Origin: Candidatus Colwellbacteria bacterium
GTDB taxonomy: Bacteria; Patescibacteriota; Minisyncoccia; UBA6257; Colwellbacteraceae
Assembly (NCBI GenBank): GCA_016176525.1
Contig: JACOWZ010000003.1
Location: forward strand, 128,001 to 192,000
Direction of reading: 5' to 3'
DNA length: 64,000 nt
The notes beneath the pieces were generated by a model. That model did no database searches and was not told the DNA's origin. It was given only the letters and a program-made list of their open reading frames with translations. Positions 2,871-21,296 of this stretch are shown here, in pieces. How positions within the stretch are numbered: position 1 is the first letter of the stretch; each line of letters opens with the position of its first letter. The position numbers and the translations under genes were made by a program.

Positions 2871-4283
2871 TCAAACCCCCCCCTCCGGCGAAAGTTTTCT
2901 GGTGCCAGATTTTTTCTCCATCCAGTTGACCGGCGCAGATATATAAAATGTAGTGCCTTTGTTTTCGACAGACTCAAACCAAATTCTGCCGGTGGTTTGG
3001 TCAAGAACTGATTTTATTATATACAAACCCAAGCCAGTTCCGCCAGAGTCAATAACACGTGCATTGTCCGCTCTAAAAAGTTTTTGAAATATTTTATTTT
3101 TTTGAGCCTCTGGAATGCCTATGCCCGTGTCCGATACCTTTATTAAAAGTTCTTTTTTGCCGCTCAAAGAAATATCAATATTAACTTTACCGCCTTCTGG
3201 AGTGTATTTAACGGCGTTAGATAATAGGTTTTGTAAGATTATGAGCACTAAATCTTTGTCTGCGGTAATCTTAGGAATCTTTGCACCATAATTTTCTATA
3301 AGCTCAATATTTTTCTTCTTCGCATCTATTCTTATTCCACTGCAAACACCTTTTGCAAAATCTTTAATATCTAATTGTTCCGGCTCCACAGTAAAAGAAC
3401 CTACTTCCAACCGCGACACATTTAGAAGTGCGTTTACAAGCTCAATCATGCGCCTGTTGCCTTCATTTACTTCTTCTAGATATTTCTTCTGGCTGATTGT
3501 TATTTTGCCAACGTCGCCGGAGAGAAGCATTTCTGTATACCAGCTTATTGCCGTAAGCGGGGTCCTTAATTGATGCGATGCTATAGCTATAAAATCTGCC
3601 TTTACTTTCTCAAGCTGAAGTTCTTCTGTAATATCTCTAAATACCAAGACAGCTCCTATTATTTTGCCGCTTAGAAATATCGGCGATACGGCCATATATA
3701 CGGGAAACTTATCTCCATTTCTCTTTTTTAAATATAAAGTGGTTTTTACCGAAACTGGGCCAGAAGAAACCATTTTTTTTAAACTAAAGGCCTTGCTGAT
3801 TAGCCTCTCTTTTTTGGGTAATTCTTTACCGTCTGCATTATATATATTTGTTATAGATAGCCAATTTTTGCCAATCATCTCATTATGCATAAAACCCAAC
3901 AATGTTTCAGCTGTCTCATTTACTTCAATCACATTATTATTTTCATCTATTGCAACAACGCCTTCTCCTATACTCGCCAAGATTGATTTTATTCTGGTGT
4001 TAATTGTTTCCAGCTCAACTTTCGTGATGTCTAGATCTTCTAAAATATTTAAAGCTGCAACTTTCGTATCTTCTAAATCTTTGTTTGCGCTAATCAGAGC
4101 TTGATTTCTTTCGTAGACTGCCTGTCTCGCCTCTTTAATTTCTGCCATAGACTTTTCAAAAGTTCTTGCTTCAGCGCCCAACCTCTCTAGCTTTTCTTTT
4201 AGCTTATTTCTACTTCTCCAAAAAAAGGATAAAATCCCCGCAAAAGCGGCTAAATTAAGCAATACAAATAGCAAAATTTGCAT
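2871..4283 (-). CDS. Membrane-anchored PAS histidine kinase (TM, coiled coil, PAS, HisKA, HATPase)
   Basis: ASHQLRTP H-box, NLLSNAVKY N-box, DTGIG and GTGLG G-boxes. Confidence 0.95.
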   Translation of the reverse strand: MQILLFVLLNLAAFAGILSFFWRSRNKLKEKLERLGAEARTFEKSMAEIKEARQAVYERNQALISANKDLEDTKVAALNILEDLDITKVELETINTRIKSILASIGEGVVAIDENNNVIEVNETAETLLGFMHNEMIGKNWLSITNIYNADGKELPKKERLISKAFSLKKMVSSGPVSVKTTLYLKKRNGDKFPVYMAVSPIFLSGKIIGAVLVFRDITEELQLEKVKADFIAIASHQLRTPLTAISWYTEMLLSGDVGKITISQKKYLEEVNEGNRRMIELVNALLNVSRLEVGSFTVEPEQLDIKDFAKGVCSGIRIDAKKKNIELIENYGAKIPKITADKDLVLIILQNLLSNAVKYTPEGGKVNIDISLSGKKELLIKVSDTGIGIPEAQKNKIFQKLFRADNARVIDSGGTGLGLYIIKSVLDQTTGRIWFESVENKGTTFYISAPVNWMEKKSGTRKLSPEGGV

Positions 4284-15545: not shown

Positions 15546-16151
15546 ATGGCTCTCGTGCAGATGGATTTTACTAATGAGGAGCTTGTGCCTCTCATTATTA
15601 AAAAACTCCAGCGCGAGAAGAAGCAACAGTTCGCAACCCGTAAAAGCAGACGAAGCGGCGCGCAACTCGTAGACATCCGGGATATTCTGGTGTCGGCAGA
15701 AACTCTCGCCGAAGGCCTGAAAAACGCCGGCTACGAGCTAACAGACGCGCACTACGAACCCCGGCAAGACCAGCGCAACCAAAACCGAACCTACCACATG
15801 GTGCGGTTCTGGTTTACGAGGAGTGAGCATGCAAAACCCTCCACAGACTTTCTGTCTGTGCGAGAGGGTGTGCTCTCCGAACTTGAGCGAATGCTTACAA
15901 CCAACTTCTGGAAGCAGTTGCGGGTATACCGCAACCCCTTCTACAGTCCGGAAACGGGCGAAGAAGTTGAAGAAGCGCGCACAATGTCGGTGAACCTCGG
16001 CGTGCCGGAACGGATCTTCGATGAAAAGAACGTCCGCCGCGAAGTATGGGTTCGGGACCAAAACGGGCTAAAAACCCACAAAACCGCGATCTCCCACGAT
16101 CTTAGCATCTACGCGGACAAAACCGCGATACATGCTGTAGGTCCGAGCTAG
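15546..16151 (+). CDS. Hypothetical protein; may start at ACG 15498
   Basis: 201-aa ORF with its own promoter and terminator; AAGGAGG 8 nt before an in-frame ACG. Confidence 0.7.
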   Translation: MALVQMDFTNEELVPLIIKKLQREKKQQFATRKSRRSGAQLVDIRDILVSAETLAEGLKNAGYELTDAHYEPRQDQRNQNRTYHMVRFWFTRSEHAKPSTDFLSVREGVLSELERMLTTNFWKQLRVYRNPFYSPETGEEVEEARTMSVNLGVPERIFDEKNVRREVWVRDQNGLKTHKTAISHDLSIYADKTAIHAVGPS

Positions 16152-16170
16152 CGGTATCTCTCCCCAACTA

Positions 16171-16208
16171 GGGGCACAAAGGCAATCGCCAATGTGCCCC
16201 ATTTTTTT
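16171..16208 (+). terminator. Intrinsic terminator
   Basis: GGGGCACA...TGTGCCCC followed by a T run. Confidence 0.75.
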
Positions 16209-16224
16209 ATCCACATATGGTGAC

Positions 16225-16253
16225 TTGACATAGAACAAGCTTTATGCTAACAT
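16225..16253 (+). promoter_or_regulatory. Sigma70-type promoter
   Basis: TTGACA-17-TAACAT with extended TG. Confidence 0.7.
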
Positions 16254-16330
16254 TAGAAGCAGAGTTGGAAGAGGGTCTTCCAACTAACAGTACCTAGACA
16301 AAAGAAAAAGAGACCGGTAAAGCCGGAAAA

Positions 16331-17089
16331 ATGAAGGAGAGAAGGGAAATGCAAAAACTGCAAAACGGAATAACCGTAAAGAACGACGACCAGCGAACGA
16401 AGGAAGCTCTGGAGCGGGCGGAAGCAAAGAAGGCGAGCGTGATGCCGTGCATCACGGTACGCCTTGCGAAGAGTTCCGCAAGGCTTCTCGATGAGCTCAA
16501 GGAGAAGGGCATCAAACTGATCCCCGACCTTGAAAGCGACGGGCATGTGCTCGCTGCGTTCAAGGATGGAGAGAAAGTTCCCCTCGTCCTGGAGAGCGCG
16601 GTTGCAACCGGAGGAGCTCGCCCCACGATCCTTGAGTTCATGGGGCCGAAAGAACTCCGAAGCACCTACACTCGCTTCGCCGTGTCGCAGAGGGACTTCA
16701 GGGAGAAGACCTTTGCTCCGACCAAGCGCACGCGCTACAACAACTCCGCTGGTGAAGACGAGGTGCGGTGCATGTCGGAAGGACATGGCAAGGTTCAGGC
16801 GCCAGCGAAAACCGAGCTTGTCGTGTCCGAGGTCAACACCGATGGAGGGTGTATCATCACGGAGTACACCTTCACCGTCTCCACGAAGGACGGCGCGGTC
16901 AGCATCACGGCTCGCAAACTCGCCCAGTTCCAGATGGTTCCCCGAGAACTTCTGGGTCTGAAGCCTGCCATGGACCACGCATACGACGAAGCAACGCGTG
17001 ACGTGGAATTCTGGCAAGAGCGAGACAGGCAGAACAGGATCGGCCGGAACGGGAGCAACCACTTCCGCAACGGCCACCAGCACCGCTAA
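16331..17089 (+). CDS. Hypothetical protein, GC-richer than its flanks
   Basis: 252-aa ORF; AAGGAG suggests a start at ATG 16349; promoter and terminator present. Confidence 0.7.
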   Translation: MKERREMQKLQNGITVKNDDQRTKEALERAEAKKASVMPCITVRLAKSSARLLDELKEKGIKLIPDLESDGHVLAAFKDGEKVPLVLESAVATGGARPTILEFMGPKELRSTYTRFAVSQRDFREKTFAPTKRTRYNNSAGEDEVRCMSEGHGKVQAPAKTELVVSEVNTDGGCIITEYTFTVSTKDGAVSITARKLAQFQMVPRELLGLKPAMDHAYDEATRDVEFWQERDRQNRIGRNGSNHFRNGHQHR

Positions 17090-17120
17090 GACCTTCGAAC
17101 TCTCTACCCACTCTTTTCCC

Positions 17121-17155
17121 GCCCAAACAGATTCGTCTGTTTGGGCACTTTTTTT
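17121..17155 (+). terminator. Intrinsic terminator
   Basis: GCCCAAACAGA-TTCG-TCTGTTTGGGC followed by a T run. Confidence 0.8.
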
Positions 17156-17239
17156 ATCCAAATATTATATATATTGACAATATAATATATTTATGCTAAA
17201 AAATAAGCAGTACTCCAAAAGATAGGGAGTCTGTTGTAG

Positions 17240-17881
17240 ATGAATGGAATGGAACTCGTGAGAACACTGCCGGTTTTAAAGCCGGTTGGAGTGCAGTTCC
17301 AAAAAGACACACTTGGGCAAGAAGAACTGCACCAAAACCTAAGGCATCTAGAAGATGCCGGTGTACCAGATACCGCCGTTAAAGTTGCCGAAACCAAAAA
17401 AGGCAGAGCTATAAGAGTTACGCTCTTAAACGGCATAGATGCACATGGATTGCAGAAAGACAATTCGTGGAAGCTGGGCGTAATCTTAGAGCTAGTGAGA
17501 AGCAAAGACCCGGACGAAAATTACGGAATCGGCCTTGCAGCCGTATACAGGATTCCGTTTGAGTATATCCAGGCACTTTGTTTACACCACAACGGAACCC
17601 GCAAATGGATAGCGCAGCTTAAGCGCAGCAACGCTTATGTTGTGCGAGCAAAAAAAGACGGCACATTAAACTTCTTCCACATTGATGCAAACTTTCCAGA
17701 TGGAAAGGTAAACGCTTTTTTGGAAGAAGACGAAGAACGCAGCCGAACTGATTATGCAGAAAGGCCACAACTCTTTACTGCTTTCGGCTTCGCTTTTCAG
17801 AACATGCAAACGAGACTGCCGGAACAATGGCAGCAATTTAGCCGCAACGGGCAGGCAAAAAGCTCTAGTGAAATTCACTAG
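17240..17881 (+). CDS. Hypothetical protein
   Basis: 213-aa ORF; TTGACA-17-TAAAAA at 17174-17202; GGGAG RBS. Confidence 0.7.
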   Translation: MNGMELVRTLPVLKPVGVQFQKDTLGQEELHQNLRHLEDAGVPDTAVKVAETKKGRAIRVTLLNGIDAHGLQKDNSWKLGVILELVRSKDPDENYGIGLAAVYRIPFEYIQALCLHHNGTRKWIAQLKRSNAYVVRAKKDGTLNFFHIDANFPDGKVNAFLEEDEERSRTDYAERPQLFTAFGFAFQNMQTRLPEQWQQFSRNGQAKSSSEIH

Positions 17882-17927: not shown

Positions 17928-18527
17928 TTATAGACTAGATTGTTTATCTGCGATTCTCTTTTTAAGATCCGCTATTCTCAACTCCCTGGTGATCATATTT
18001 TTATTGAACTCCTTCAACTTGCTATTTTTCATAGAAATTTCCTTATAAACAGTCTCTAAAGATAAGGTTTCTGTGACTAATTCTTTTTCTATTTTCTTAA
18101 CGCCATCAACTTGCCTAGAAAGCTCTTTGTTTATTTCTCTGAGTTTTGTAGGACTAATTAGTTTTAACATAGAAGGAACGGCAACCGCATATGCGACAAA
18201 TGATGCAAAAGATATAAGACCCGTGCCGAGATCAATCGTACCGGCGAGATAATACGCCGGATAAAAAAATACTAAGGCGTTAATAAAATGGCTGGTGCTG
18301 CACCAAACCCCAAAGACGGTAATAACCAAAAAGACCCATCTAAAAGAGAAATCCTTCCTTTTGATATAGATATAAAAAAGCTCGGCTGGAATAACAAGAT
18401 AAGTGATGCCGATTAAAATATTGGCAATTATAAGCGTCCACATCAGCCCGATATTATTTGGAATAAAATGCGCACTGTGAGGCTCGAACCCGCCGGAGTT
18501 TAATATTAGATTAATAAAATCAAGCAT
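17928..18527 (-). CDS. Ethylene-receptor-like membrane domain plus coiled coil, no kinase
   Basis: ITYLVIPAELFY...FRWVF...WCSTSHF matches the ETR1 TM1-TM2 pattern; tail MITRELRI. Confidence 0.75.
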   Translation of the reverse strand: MLDFINLILNSGGFEPHSAHFIPNNIGLMWTLIIANILIGITYLVIPAELFYIYIKRKDFSFRWVFLVITVFGVWCSTSHFINALVFFYPAYYLAGTIDLGTGLISFASFVAYAVAVPSMLKLISPTKLREINKELSRQVDGVKKIEKELVTETLSLETVYKEISMKNSKLKEFNKNMITRELRIADLKKRIADKQSSL

Positions 18528-19116
18528 GTTTGTTGTCTATATCAACCAATTGGGCTTCTAATTCTTTGACGGCGCTATCGCGATTCGCCATGATTCTATT
18601 AAAATTTTCCAATTCCTCGTTTTTCAATATCAAATTCTCGCTGGCTTTTTTGAGCTCTTCTTTCTTTACCGCAAGTTCTCCTAATTTAGACTCTCGACTT
18701 TTAATTTCATCAGAGAGAGATTTGTTGGCTTGCTGCATTTGTTCCGGGCTTACCAAACTAACAATGATAGGCAAGAAGTAAAGCATAGCTACCGCGGTCG
18801 CGGCCGAAACCAAAAAAGTTACGACGCTGATTATCGCCTGCAGATAATATGCCGGATACCAGAAGATAAGAACATGCATTAAATGGGTAAGGCCGCATAA
18901 GAAGATAAAAGCCCCGAAAAGCAAAACCATCCAGTTCAGATACAAATCCCTTCTTTTTCTAACGAAATATATGATTACAACCGGGATTAAGAGATAAGCC
19001 AAGAAACTGAAGGCATTCCCATACACCGACAGATCCATTGCAATCGGAGTATCAAAAAAGTGTGCTCTATGAGGTTCAAAAACAGAACCATCAAAAATTA
19101 ATTTAAGAAAGTCCAT
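18520..19116 (-). CDS. Ethylene-receptor-like membrane domain plus coiled coil, no kinase
   Basis: LAYLLIPVVIIYFV...FGAFIFLCGLTHL versus ETR1 FGAFIVLCGATHL; start placed at ATG 19116 by paralog alignment. Confidence 0.8.
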   Translation of the reverse strand: MDFLKLIFDGSVFEPHRAHFFDTPIAMDLSVYGNAFSFLAYLLIPVVIIYFVRKRRDLYLNWMVLLFGAFIFLCGLTHLMHVLIFWYPAYYLQAIISVVTFLVSAATAVAMLYFLPIIVSLVSPEQMQQANKSLSDEIKSRESKLGELAVKKEELKKASENLILKNEELENFNRIMANRDSAVKELEAQLVDIDNKHA

Positions 19117-19275
19117 AGTAGAATACACAAAAAAATTATACCACGCGCTATTTAATAACAATCTAAAAAACACAACAGAAATCCGGTTTTGAATAATTTC
19201 CTATTCACCCCGACGCTACGTCGGGGCAAGCGGGAAACTCCCGTTTCCCGATCCCTTCCCAGTTCGATTCCCTAT

Positions 19276-19315
19276 AAATATAGAAACTTCACAATTATGT
19301 GAAGTTTCTATATTT
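19276..19315 (-). terminator. 18-bp perfect hairpin downstream of tRNA-Glu
   Basis: AAATATAGAAACTTCACA-ATTA-TGTGAAGTTTCTATATTT. Confidence 0.7.
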
Positions 19316-19318
19316 CAG

Positions 19319-19390
19319 TAGTCCCAAGGGGAATCGAACCCCTATTTGCGCCGTGAAAGGGCGCTGTCCTAGCCGTTAGACGATGAGACC
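19319..19390 (-). tRNA. tRNA-Glu(TTC)
   Basis: GCGCC-CTTTCAC-GGCGC arm; TAGACA-17-TACGAT promoter upstream. Confidence 0.93.
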
Positions 19391-19442
19391 TTACGCATTG
19401 AATCGTATATAAAAATATTTTGTTTGTCTATTATAAAAATAA

Positions 19443-20097
19443 TAGCCGGGTAGGATGCGCGCAAAGCTCTCCTCCCGGCTTTTGTGATAGGGATGCACTC
19501 ATCTTGCGGTTGCAAGACCCTCATAGTTCGCCCAAGATTCTATCGGAGCATGTACACGTTGCCGATTACTCTGTCATCTCCGAAGAGACGACGGTGGTAG
19601 CTCTTGGTTTTTATTTTTGAGGTGTCCAGCGTGTTGTGCTGGATTTAAGGCCCTGTGATTCCGGCTCGGATTAATCCTGTTGCTACTCCCTTCGGATTTA
19701 CAACAAGATTCACACCAAGCATTTGCCCTTGCTCCGCTGCTGACGGATGGGCCGCCTTTATCTTGATCTGCGATTGGGTAATTCTGCTAGCATGCTTCCT
19801 TTTACCCTATTTCGCACGTCGCTTCCAAAGCTGCTTCAAGGTTTAACCCGGAGGGTTGCTCCTTGGAGCCGCATAGCGTGGCGCTTTTAGCTTTAGCCTT
19901 TCGGCTTTGGCTTTTGGGCGTTGTTGCGCTATGGGTAGCGGCGCTTAATCAAGATTCAGCCAGGTTCGGACCTTAGACCTATCGGTCGGGTTCTTGCCTG
20001 GGTTCCCGTTCTTCTAAGTATTTTTTAGGTACTTAGGAAACGGGTTAGGCTACGGATGTCACTGTGATGTTAGGTGCTTTCGCTCTCTATCGGTACT
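19443..20097 (-). ncRNA. Candidate large structured ncRNA (~650 nt), class unknown, strand uncertain
   Basis: At least 10 stems including nested long-range helices; GAAA and UUCG loops on the minus strand; TTGACA-16-TAATAT at 20129-20102; no credible ORF. Confidence 0.6.
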
Positions 20098-20267
20098 CAC
20101 TATATTACTCTCGCTAAAAAAGCTGTCAATACCCCCAAAATCGCGAAAAATAGGGCTTTTTACCCTATAAAATGAATAACTTGTTTAGAACCCTGTGGAA
20201 AATTTGTGGAAAAATCGGCACTTTTTGGCTTTGCTTTCCATGAGAATCCAATTAACATATAGCTACT

Positions 20268-21296
20268 ATGCGGATTTTAGCAATAGAAACATCTTGCGAC
20301 GAGAGTGCAATAGCGTTGGTTGAGGCGACTGGAACTCTAATCAGGAATCCCCGCTTCAACGTGCTCGCTAACCTAATATCGTCTCAAGTAAAAGTACATC
20401 GCCCATTCGGCGGCGTAGTGCCAAACTTAGCAAAAAGAGAACATATTAAAAATTTGCCTCTGCTTCTACAGCAACTAGAAACTAAAAACTTAAAACTAGA
20501 AACCATTGACTTAATCGTAGTCACTGTAGGCCCTGGGCTTGAACCGGCGCTTTGGACAGGAATAAACTTTGCCGAAGATTTAGCTAAGAAACTAGAGAAA
20601 TCCATCTTGGGAGTAAATCACCTAGAAGGACACCTCTACAGCTTTTTATTGGAGCAAAAAGCTGGCTTACAGTTTCCGGCAATGGTGTTGTCTGTAAGTG
20701 GAGGACACACTATGTTAATTCATTTGGAAAAGCTCGGGCAAGCTAAAAAAATAGGCGAAACGCGCGACGACGCCGCAGGCGAGGCGTTTGATAAAGTTGC
20801 CCGCCTTCTTGGTTTGCCCTACCCCGGCGGGCCGGAGATTGAAAAATTAGCTAAAAAAGGCGACGAAAACGCAATAGATTTTCCGCGCCCGATGATACAC
20901 CAAAAGAACTTTGACTTTAGCTTCTCCGGCATAAAAACATCTGTTCTTTATTATATTAGAGACTTAAAACTGAAAACTTTAAACTTAAAACAAAAGGCGG
21001 ATATAGCCGCGAGCTTTCAGAAAGCGGTTTCAGAAACGCTTGTTGCAAAAACAATACGCGCTGCAGAAGAATTTGGAGTAAAATCAATTGCCCTTGTGGG
21101 AGGCGTTTCGGCAAATAAATATTTAACTAAAAAAATGGAAAAGGCAGCCAAGAATATTGGACTCGCATTTACCTCGCCACAGCTCCAATTCAATACCGAC
21201 AACGCCGCAATGATAGCCGCAGCGGCCTACATTAATACTTTAAAAAAGAAAAAAATAAAAAATAAAATTGAGGCAAATTCTAATTTAAATTTGTAA
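20268..21296 (+). CDS. tsaD: tRNA t6A threonylcarbamoyltransferase
   Basis: IETSCDE, HLEGH, SGGHT, DDAAGEAFDK, DNAAMI. Confidence 0.97.
   Translation: MRILAIETSCDESAIALVEATGTLIRNPRFNVLANLISSQVKVHRPFGGVVPNLAKREHIKNLPLLLQQLETKNLKLETIDLIVVTVGPGLEPALWTGINFAEDLAKKLEKSILGVNHLEGHLYSFLLEQKAGLQFPAMVLSVSGGHTMLIHLEKLGQAKKIGETRDDAAGEAFDKVARLLGLPYPGGPEIEKLAKKGDENAIDFPRPMIHQKNFDFSFSGIKTSVLYYIRDLKLKTLNLKQKADIAASFQKAVSETLVAKTIRAAEEFGVKSIALVGGVSANKYLTKKMEKAAKNIGLAFTSPQLQFNTDNAAMIAAAAYINTLKKKKIKNKIEANSNLNL

Follow-up and report, generated by a model that had tools for sequence, protein, structure and literature searches.

A predicted large, structured "ornate orphan" RNA without an Rfam 15 match in the tRNA-Glu to tsaD gap of a Colwellbacteria genome

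We analysed a 64,000-nt stretch of DNA (the window) from a Candidatus Colwellbacteria bacterium whose genome of 655,788 bases, in four contigs with a main contig (C1) of 645 kb, is rated 100% complete. The element under study sits between tRNA-Glu(TTC) and tsaD, in a gap of 877 nt. The window has three gaps of at least 330 nt without an ORF (ORFs of at least 90 aa considered), and this one exceeds the other two, in agreement with the earlier note, which had singled it out as the longest gene-free stretch. Stop-free frames of 48–72 codons exist within the gap, 72 codons being the longest. The element is present in a single copy in the host genome, and no terminal inverted repeats were found around it. 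The other neighbours are ETR1_N membrane proteins and ORFans; no prophage was found near the element, six neighbour proteins giving only two weak PHROG matches and no clear phage families. Among the matches listed with names, the best matches of TsaD were to Parcubacteria/Paceibacteria-group genomes, at 56–60% identity. The runs carrying the stretch nearly whole are groundwater metagenomes, with no RNA run among the listed runs that carry it. The genes and predicted signals of the locus, in window coordinates, are these:

19318–19390, minus strand: tRNA-Glu(TTC), 50 nt from the 3' hairpin and here in tandem with the element
19402–19430, minus strand: promoter-like site of tRNA-Glu (9/12 matches), separate from that of the element
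19436–19480, minus strand: 3' hairpin with a U-rich tail; TTTT also follows the hairpin on the plus strand
19484–20095, minus strand: predicted ncRNA body of about 610 nt, 50% G+C (genome 42.5%), with estimated ends
20102–20129, minus strand: sigma70-type promoter TTGACA-N16-TAATAT of predicted activity, then TACCGAT at the likely start
20268–21296, plus strand: tsaD, the divergent neighbour (PF00814, E 2e-88)

The surroundings hold several further features. Three G+C-rich ORFs (201, 252 and 213 aa) at 15546–17881, without a Pfam or PHROG match, stand between tRNA-Arg and two tandem genes for ETR1_N (ethylene-receptor-like N-terminal) membrane proteins at 17928–19173; this segment looks like a small island, and its ORF at 17240–17881 had no relative in viral contigs. 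Behind tRNA-Glu, an 18-bp palindrome without mismatches lies within 19197–19315, together with another hairpin and 11 nt of the tRNA T-arm repeated in inverted orientation, and part of this segment is found again beside tRNA-Leu at C1:201009–201073. Another ORF-free stretch, of 689 nt and 54% G+C, adjoins tRNA-Met at C1:16161–16849. A 3.7-kb ORF-free block, C1:120940–124652, probably contains the 23S gene, and the 16S gene (C1:362242) is at a distance from it. At C1:61113–62503 (locus L310, 685–2075, minus strand) there is a solo retron-like reverse transcriptase of 401 aa, with what we read as a YVDG motif; about 150 nt upstream of it are bounded by GTGGGAT/ATCCCAC inverted repeats, and its locus showed no Rfam match and no evident effector gene.

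The earlier note had described the gap as almost fully tiled by stems, and every stem it listed is present. We combined these with a predicted fold of the minus strand, which divides the body into three domains:

20091–20087/19490–19486, minus strand: predicted helix closing the body
19960–20062, minus strand: 5' domain, with two hairpin arms (20044–20005 and 20001–19960) of pair probabilities 0.6–1.0
19960–19964/19997–20001 and 20005–20010/20039–20044: stems of these two arms
19760–19955, minus strand: central multibranch domain, with the GAAA arm, arm 19869–19833 and arm 19807–19776, the last with a 20-nt loop
19760–19767/19948–19955: long-range helix enclosing several arms
19776–19781/19802–19807: stem inside the long-range helix
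19833–19841/19861–19869: stem inside the long-range helix
19872–19878/19927–19933: stem with a GAAA loop (19902–19899) on minus
19484–19757, minus strand: 3' domain, the best conserved part, with a folding z of -3.8 on minus vs -0.7 on plus
19673–19682/19701–19710: stem, one C.A on plus and G-U on minus
19625–19630/19638–19643: stem in arm 19643–19625
19532–19537/19602–19607: stem enclosing 19573–19592, with a cUUCGg loop on minus
19502–19507/19512–19517: stem in hairpin 19518–19501
19444–19450/19474–19480: stem, part of the 3' hairpin
19796–19791 with 19552–19547, minus strand: candidate loop-loop pairing of 6 bp, found by eye

The 5' domain is also predicted to hold the 5' strands of long-range helices pairing with 19757–19754 and 19663–19652. 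The 3' domain is made up of arms 19752–19725, 19720–19664 and 19643–19625, an A-rich strand, the UUCG arm and hairpin 19518–19501. Several loops contain palindromes (GCAUGC, GCUAGC, UGUACA). The candidate pairing of 19796–19791 with 19552–19547 is of a length at which chance matches among large loops are not rare; it competes with the local helix 19571–19567/19550–19546, a change at 19548 in one relative leaves a G-U pair in it, and a loop-loop scan returned nothing at its thresholds. The 3' hairpin, with its U-rich tail, is likely a terminator; the terminator scan did not call it, its loop being too long; the similarity of two relatives (runs X6 and X7) stops at 19470.

Folding energies place the region well outside its genomic background. 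The z-scores against shuffles were -7.7 on plus and -6.0 on minus, with 0/20 shuffles reaching the observed value on each strand, and the two halves on their better strand reached -31 and -27.5 kcal/mol vs -19.8 for the best control, exceeding 91/91 windows of 331 nt taken at even intervals along the main contig. The z-score alone is no proof of an RNA gene because z of -6 to -8 is also seen in CPR tRNA flanks that are unrelated to the element and rich in REP-like hairpins. As evidence for an RNA gene, covariation does more.

Contigs 84–99% alike to parts of the element were found in four runs, which belong to three other studies (X5; X6; X7 together with X8), and a contig in a further run (X3), from what may be the source study, spans the element without a difference. 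The contigs of the relatives are short and have a depth of only 2–12, so that single differences may be errors, and they cover almost nothing of 19956–20058. We compared all 44 listed substitutions, from five relative contigs, with the predicted pairs. Four double changes keep predicted pairs: at 19514/19505 a U-A pair becomes C-G in X6, with a U-G intermediate in X7, and the other three lie at 19905/19896, 19703/19680 and 19694/19689. With random placement, at least four doubles of this kind arose in 0.17% of 100,000 trials (mean 0.60; P ~0.002). Without the indel-rich stretches, which were chosen for exclusion after the data had been seen, two doubles are left vs a mean of 0.07 (P 0.0016). 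Eleven substitutions break a minus-strand pair, 9 of them within the excluded stretches.

The changes in length fall mostly in distal arms and hairpins: X5 has lost 30 nt, mainly in 19829–19866, X8 has lost 18 nt in 19680–19703, and 7 nt change in X6 in 19574–19595. Both of the longer losses are multiples of three; single-base losses at 19497 and 19636 break reading frames. A change at 20092 in X6 lengthens the closing helix, no difference is listed in 19776–19815 for X5, X7 record 22 or X8, and the 3' domain has 96% identity in X7 record 20. The evidence of structure is good but thin.

The likely direction of transcription follows from a predicted promoter. The TTGACA-16-TAATAT that the earlier note saw pointing in from the right is present at 20129–20102 on minus. 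The exact 12-base pattern, which the note had picked from the element's locus alone, has two copies in the 645-kb contig vs 0.22 expected; the second lies 272 nt upstream of 16S rRNA, and TACCGAT follows both. We infer from this sequence pattern that the promoter is active. Given its position, the RNA would therefore start near 20095 on minus, and the likely RNA comprises the body between about 20095 and 19484 and the hairpin that follows, down to about 19440. No plus-strand promoter was found. Unpaired bases are 57% A and 11% U on minus and 53% U on plus; in the sense strands of the host RNase P RNA, tmRNA and three 16S pieces, 39–49% of unpaired bases are A. The minus strand carries cUUCGg and cGAAAg loops, and the plus strand has no standard tetraloops. 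In well-aligned stretches, single changes keep and break pairs 7 and 2 times on minus and 4 and 5 times on plus; over all 44 substitutions the same count is flat (10/11 on minus, 9/13 on plus). Overall, we consider it quite likely that minus is the functional strand.

The earlier note had cautioned that stems gaining G-U pairs on plus leave the strand unsettled. This caution was justified: minus is favoured, yet the plus-strand G-U excess in 19760–20096 is real. The whole fold reaches -259.6 on plus vs -232.5 on minus, with 25 vs 8 G-U pairs, and without G-U pairs the two strands are equal (-209.5 and -208.0). Within 19760–20096, which includes the central domain that folds better on plus for this reason, G-U pairs add -38.6 kcal/mol on plus and -3.3 on minus. 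Five of five control pieces of stable RNA gain more G-U energy on their sense strand, the reverse of 19760–20096. When the unpaired letters were permuted, the result was -21 to -22 (sd 5–6), and the observed value was reached in 0/150 permutations under either scaffold. In a minus-strand RNA, A.C oppositions thus often occupy places at which G-U would be expected from other RNAs. Of the 19 G-U pairs on plus, three (19996/19965, 19909/19892 and 19858/19844) correspond on minus to the C.A of a recurrent 3x3 loop in which one C.A stands beside A.A or A.G pairs; these may be a non-canonical motif, a case outside the permutation model. The remaining A.C oppositions could stem from protonated pairs, from a different fold or from copying of the strand. 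With DNA energies the preference for plus shrinks to 2–3 kcal/mol.

We then compared the element with known families. With Rfam 15, only tRNAs matched at gathering score in the window, and over 19300–20300 at E<=10 the matches were limited to an IMES-2 fragment of 10 bits and, over the hairpin, STnc310 at 16 bits. The earlier note had seen no hallmark of RNase P, tmRNA, SRP or introns, and this held up. The host encodes its RNase P RNA at C1:499086–499460 and its tmRNA at C1:257935–258260; at E<=1 there was no match in the whole genome to SRP RNA (RF00169; controls positive in 13/14 genomes) or 6S RNA (RF00013; controls positive in 5/14 genomes), nor any at E<=1 to group II domain V/VI (RF00029; controls positive in 5/14 genomes). 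A group I intron was rejected, with no Rfam match and with the flanking tRNA and tsaD whole. For GOLLD (RF02032) there was no match at E<=10 in the 1-kb region or the genome, for ROOL (RF03087) none at E<=10 in the region or the genome, the control genomes being without a positive as well, and for OLE (RF01071) none in the region or the genome, where the controls were likewise negative. It belongs to none of the GOLLD, ROOL and OLE families.

The comparison with GOLLD and ROOL that the earlier note had drawn is an analogy and not membership; it stands for size and tRNA context and fails as to model matches. According to the sources cited, GOLLD and ROOL often lie near tRNAs, and GOLLD, ROOL and OLE make RNA-only multimers via A-minor contacts and kissing loops (PMC12286853, PMC5737381); ROOL is given there as averaging 581 nt (PMC5737381). 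The element resembles ROOL in being about 600 nt long, multibranched, adjacent to a tRNA and without an associated protein gene. It differs in that no prophage context was found and in occurring in one narrow CPR lineage so far, vs three phyla for ROOL. ROOL has three pseudoknots; for the element, several multibranch junctions are predicted and there are candidate pseudoknots. With GOLLD it has in common a nearby tRNA, a GAAA loop, A-rich internal loops and a 3' region that looks better conserved than the rest, as described for GOLLD (PMC12286853). Unlike GOLLD it has no phage or prophage setting, is shorter than many GOLLDs, and has its own predicted promoter; in a contig of one relative, the tRNA and the element read towards each other, so that they are not co-transcribed there. 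Like OLE it would be a chromosomal orphan RNA of about 600 nt, and its palindromic loops could kiss symmetrically, as is described at OLE L9.3 (PMC12286853); unlike OLE it occurs in another phylum and has tsaD and tRNA-Glu as neighbours.

Searches for homologues beyond the metagenomic relatives gave nothing. BLAST of the element had no real match in 60 relatives, 400 class genomes, phages or plasmids (two matches among the 60 relatives were spurious), nor did BLAST of the 3' part in 400 order genomes (one match lay inside an ORF). Exact patterns gave chance matches only in genome and metagenome contigs (three of the genome-contig matches being the region behind a TPP riboswitch) and in viral contigs, where the result for one scan covers 120 of about 200 matching stretches. 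A single-sequence covariance model of the 3' domain (R1) found no homologue in 52 family and 150 order genomes, and a model of the centre (R3) gave four matches of 16–19 bits in 120 relatives, which we judged to be chance. No homologue was found by nhmmer, R1 or R3 in the flanks of tRNA-Glu at 195 loci (including 3 duplicates and 4 other tRNAs), or by nhmmer at 29 tsaD loci, of which R1 covered 25 and R3 only one (L024); at 80 TsaD loci listed from 4 of 64 parts of the genome contigs, neither nhmmer (80) nor R1 (17) had a match. A loose promoter pattern matched three times in 52 family genomes, always in or before ORFs. These models and patterns are insensitive below about 70–75% identity, so blanks mean "not found" and not "absent". 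The RNA family would appear to be either narrow or fast-diverging.

The tsaD loci of relatives bear on the origin of the element. Upstream of tsaD, tRNA-Glu occurs in 12 of 29 relatives' loci; it shares the strand of tsaD in every case, at a distance of at most 80 nt in 8, and the RNA is absent from all 12; it is therefore likely an insertion. In a 373-nt contig of X7 (record 20), the 3' end of the RNA is joined to tRNA-Glu in convergent orientation, 35 nt apart, and in X6 (record 17, 20059–20311) its 5' end is joined to tsaD with the linkage kept. Read most simply, these single contigs suggest that the RNA was inserted at the 3' end of tRNA-Glu, that its hairpin stops transcription arriving from both sides, and that an inversion followed in this genome.

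Other tRNA-Glu loci of relatives show arrangements of their own. L024 (G051:C3) was not counted as a homologue (z -2.5, no model match); at about 3270–3640 it has tRNA-Glu, a hairpin, a terminator-like hairpin and a convergent ORF-free segment of about 300 nt with TTGACA, in a layout like that of the element. An ORF-free stretch upstream of tRNA-Glu in L156 (G295:C31, 484–1095) contains what appears to be a 23S rRNA fragment, by our own assignment. In L102, L169, L091, L390 and L048, the full tRNA-Glu is directly preceded by incomplete copies of itself, which hairpin cassettes and a small nuclease-like ORF interrupt; in L102 the arrangement is duplicated in tandem. In L002 (G022:C20, 1871–3029), a relative's 23S rRNA has insertions when compared with the Rfam model, and one of them measures about 100 nt.

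The element is likely the gene of a separately transcribed minus-strand ncRNA of about 610 bases, predicted to be abundant; we propose, at even odds (a probability of about 0.5), that this RNA acts as a compact RNA-only scaffold by analogy with ROOL and GOLLD. The proposal starts from the stems, the covariation, the lack of a long frame, the promoter pattern common with 16S and the absence of the RNA from relatives' loci. The RNA would have arrived as cargo at the 3' end of tRNA-Glu. Transcription would run from about 20095 to the hairpin at 19480–19444, quite probably on minus, and the transcript would be stable and highly abundant. Arms built of a stem, an A-rich 3x3 loop, a short stem and a tetraloop would dock into helices by A-minor contacts, and the 19796–19791/19552–19547 pairing and the palindromic loop hexamers could act within or between molecules. 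Through A-rich loops and loop-loop pairing the RNA might assemble with itself, possibly into multimers, as its analogues do.

The split between the strands allows for another role of the minus transcript, as a template whose 5'/central half is copied into a folding strand while the 3' domain folds as RNA; the copier could be a reverse transcriptase in trans or an RNA polymerase. The 3' domain does fold only on minus, the 5'/central half has a plus G-U excess beyond composition, and the host encodes the retron-like reverse transcriptase mentioned above. The folding of one part best as the transcript's complement is a likeness to retron and other reverse-transcriptase-associated ncRNAs; in retrons, however, the template is the 3' part, whereas here the complement-folding part is 5'/central, and no reverse transcriptase is adjacent. 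The only PF00078 gene lies about 86 kb off with an upstream inverted-repeat segment of its own, the small preference for plus under DNA energies speaks against copying, and so does the possibility that 3/19 plus G-U pairs are non-canonical C.A motif pairs on minus. We regard a template as unlikely. Equally doubtful to us is its extension to a two-half stable RNA of opposite polarity, a stand-alone template copied in trans that might belong to a wider fast-diverging CPR class. It is likewise rather unlikely that the minus RNA works with proteins, as an OLE-like ribonucleoprotein scaffold or a protein sponge in step with rRNA. The promoter is common only to 16S rRNA, and OLE, described as of similar size, binds proteins; but OLE had no match, no partner gene travels along (relatives keep only tsaD and tRNA-Glu near), and no long complement to other genes was found (best 14–18 nt, E>=1.3).

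The remaining readings fare less well. An element selected at the DNA level as folded single-stranded DNA, be it of REP/MITE type or what is left of a mobile islet that targeted a tRNA, would fit the insertion at tRNA-Glu, the equal Watson-Crick energies of the strands and the strongly folding hairpin stacks often seen in CPR tRNA flanks. Its single copy without terminal inverted repeats, nested multibranch fold, RNA tetraloops and rRNA-type promoter make this improbable, as does the 3' domain being 96% identical in X7 vs 87–88% for tsaD pieces of the same run, which may come from a different organism. A functional RNA on plus has lower energy and more G-U pairs to recommend it, and in one relative tRNA-Glu reads towards the RNA from the left; yet plus has no promoter, begins with a hairpin with TTTT at its 5' end, leaves U-rich loops without standard tetraloops and scores only -0.7 in the 3' domain, so that we think it very improbable. 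Hardly any weight is left for a chance-folding spacer or a hidden small protein gene, a reading already largely refuted: the stop-free frames of 48–72 codons and the two deletions in multiples of three are outweighed by compensatory changes, frame-breaking one-base losses and folding beyond 91/91 controls.

The ncRNA reading therefore carries forward the earlier note's "candidate new large ncRNA", which gains support from the lack of a known-family match, the compensatory changes and the promoter pattern common with 16S. On sequence grounds, this predicted large structured RNA of the "ornate orphan" kind is new, being absent from Rfam 15. We found no description of such a CPR RNA in the literature; motif catalogues outside Rfam could hold one. 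To our knowledge, few bacterial ncRNAs exceed 500 nt; besides ribozymes and core machinery, they comprise the OLE, ROOL and GOLLD classes, which await an explanation. The RNA can be made in vitro and is a ready target for probing and cryo-EM. Such work would show whether an unrelated family has evolved RNA-only cages anew, and the strand split could reveal an unusual C.A-rich architecture or a copying step. That a 0.66-Mb genome without detectable SRP or 6S RNA keeps a predicted 610-nt RNA under a 16S-type promoter pattern suggests a real benefit to its host.
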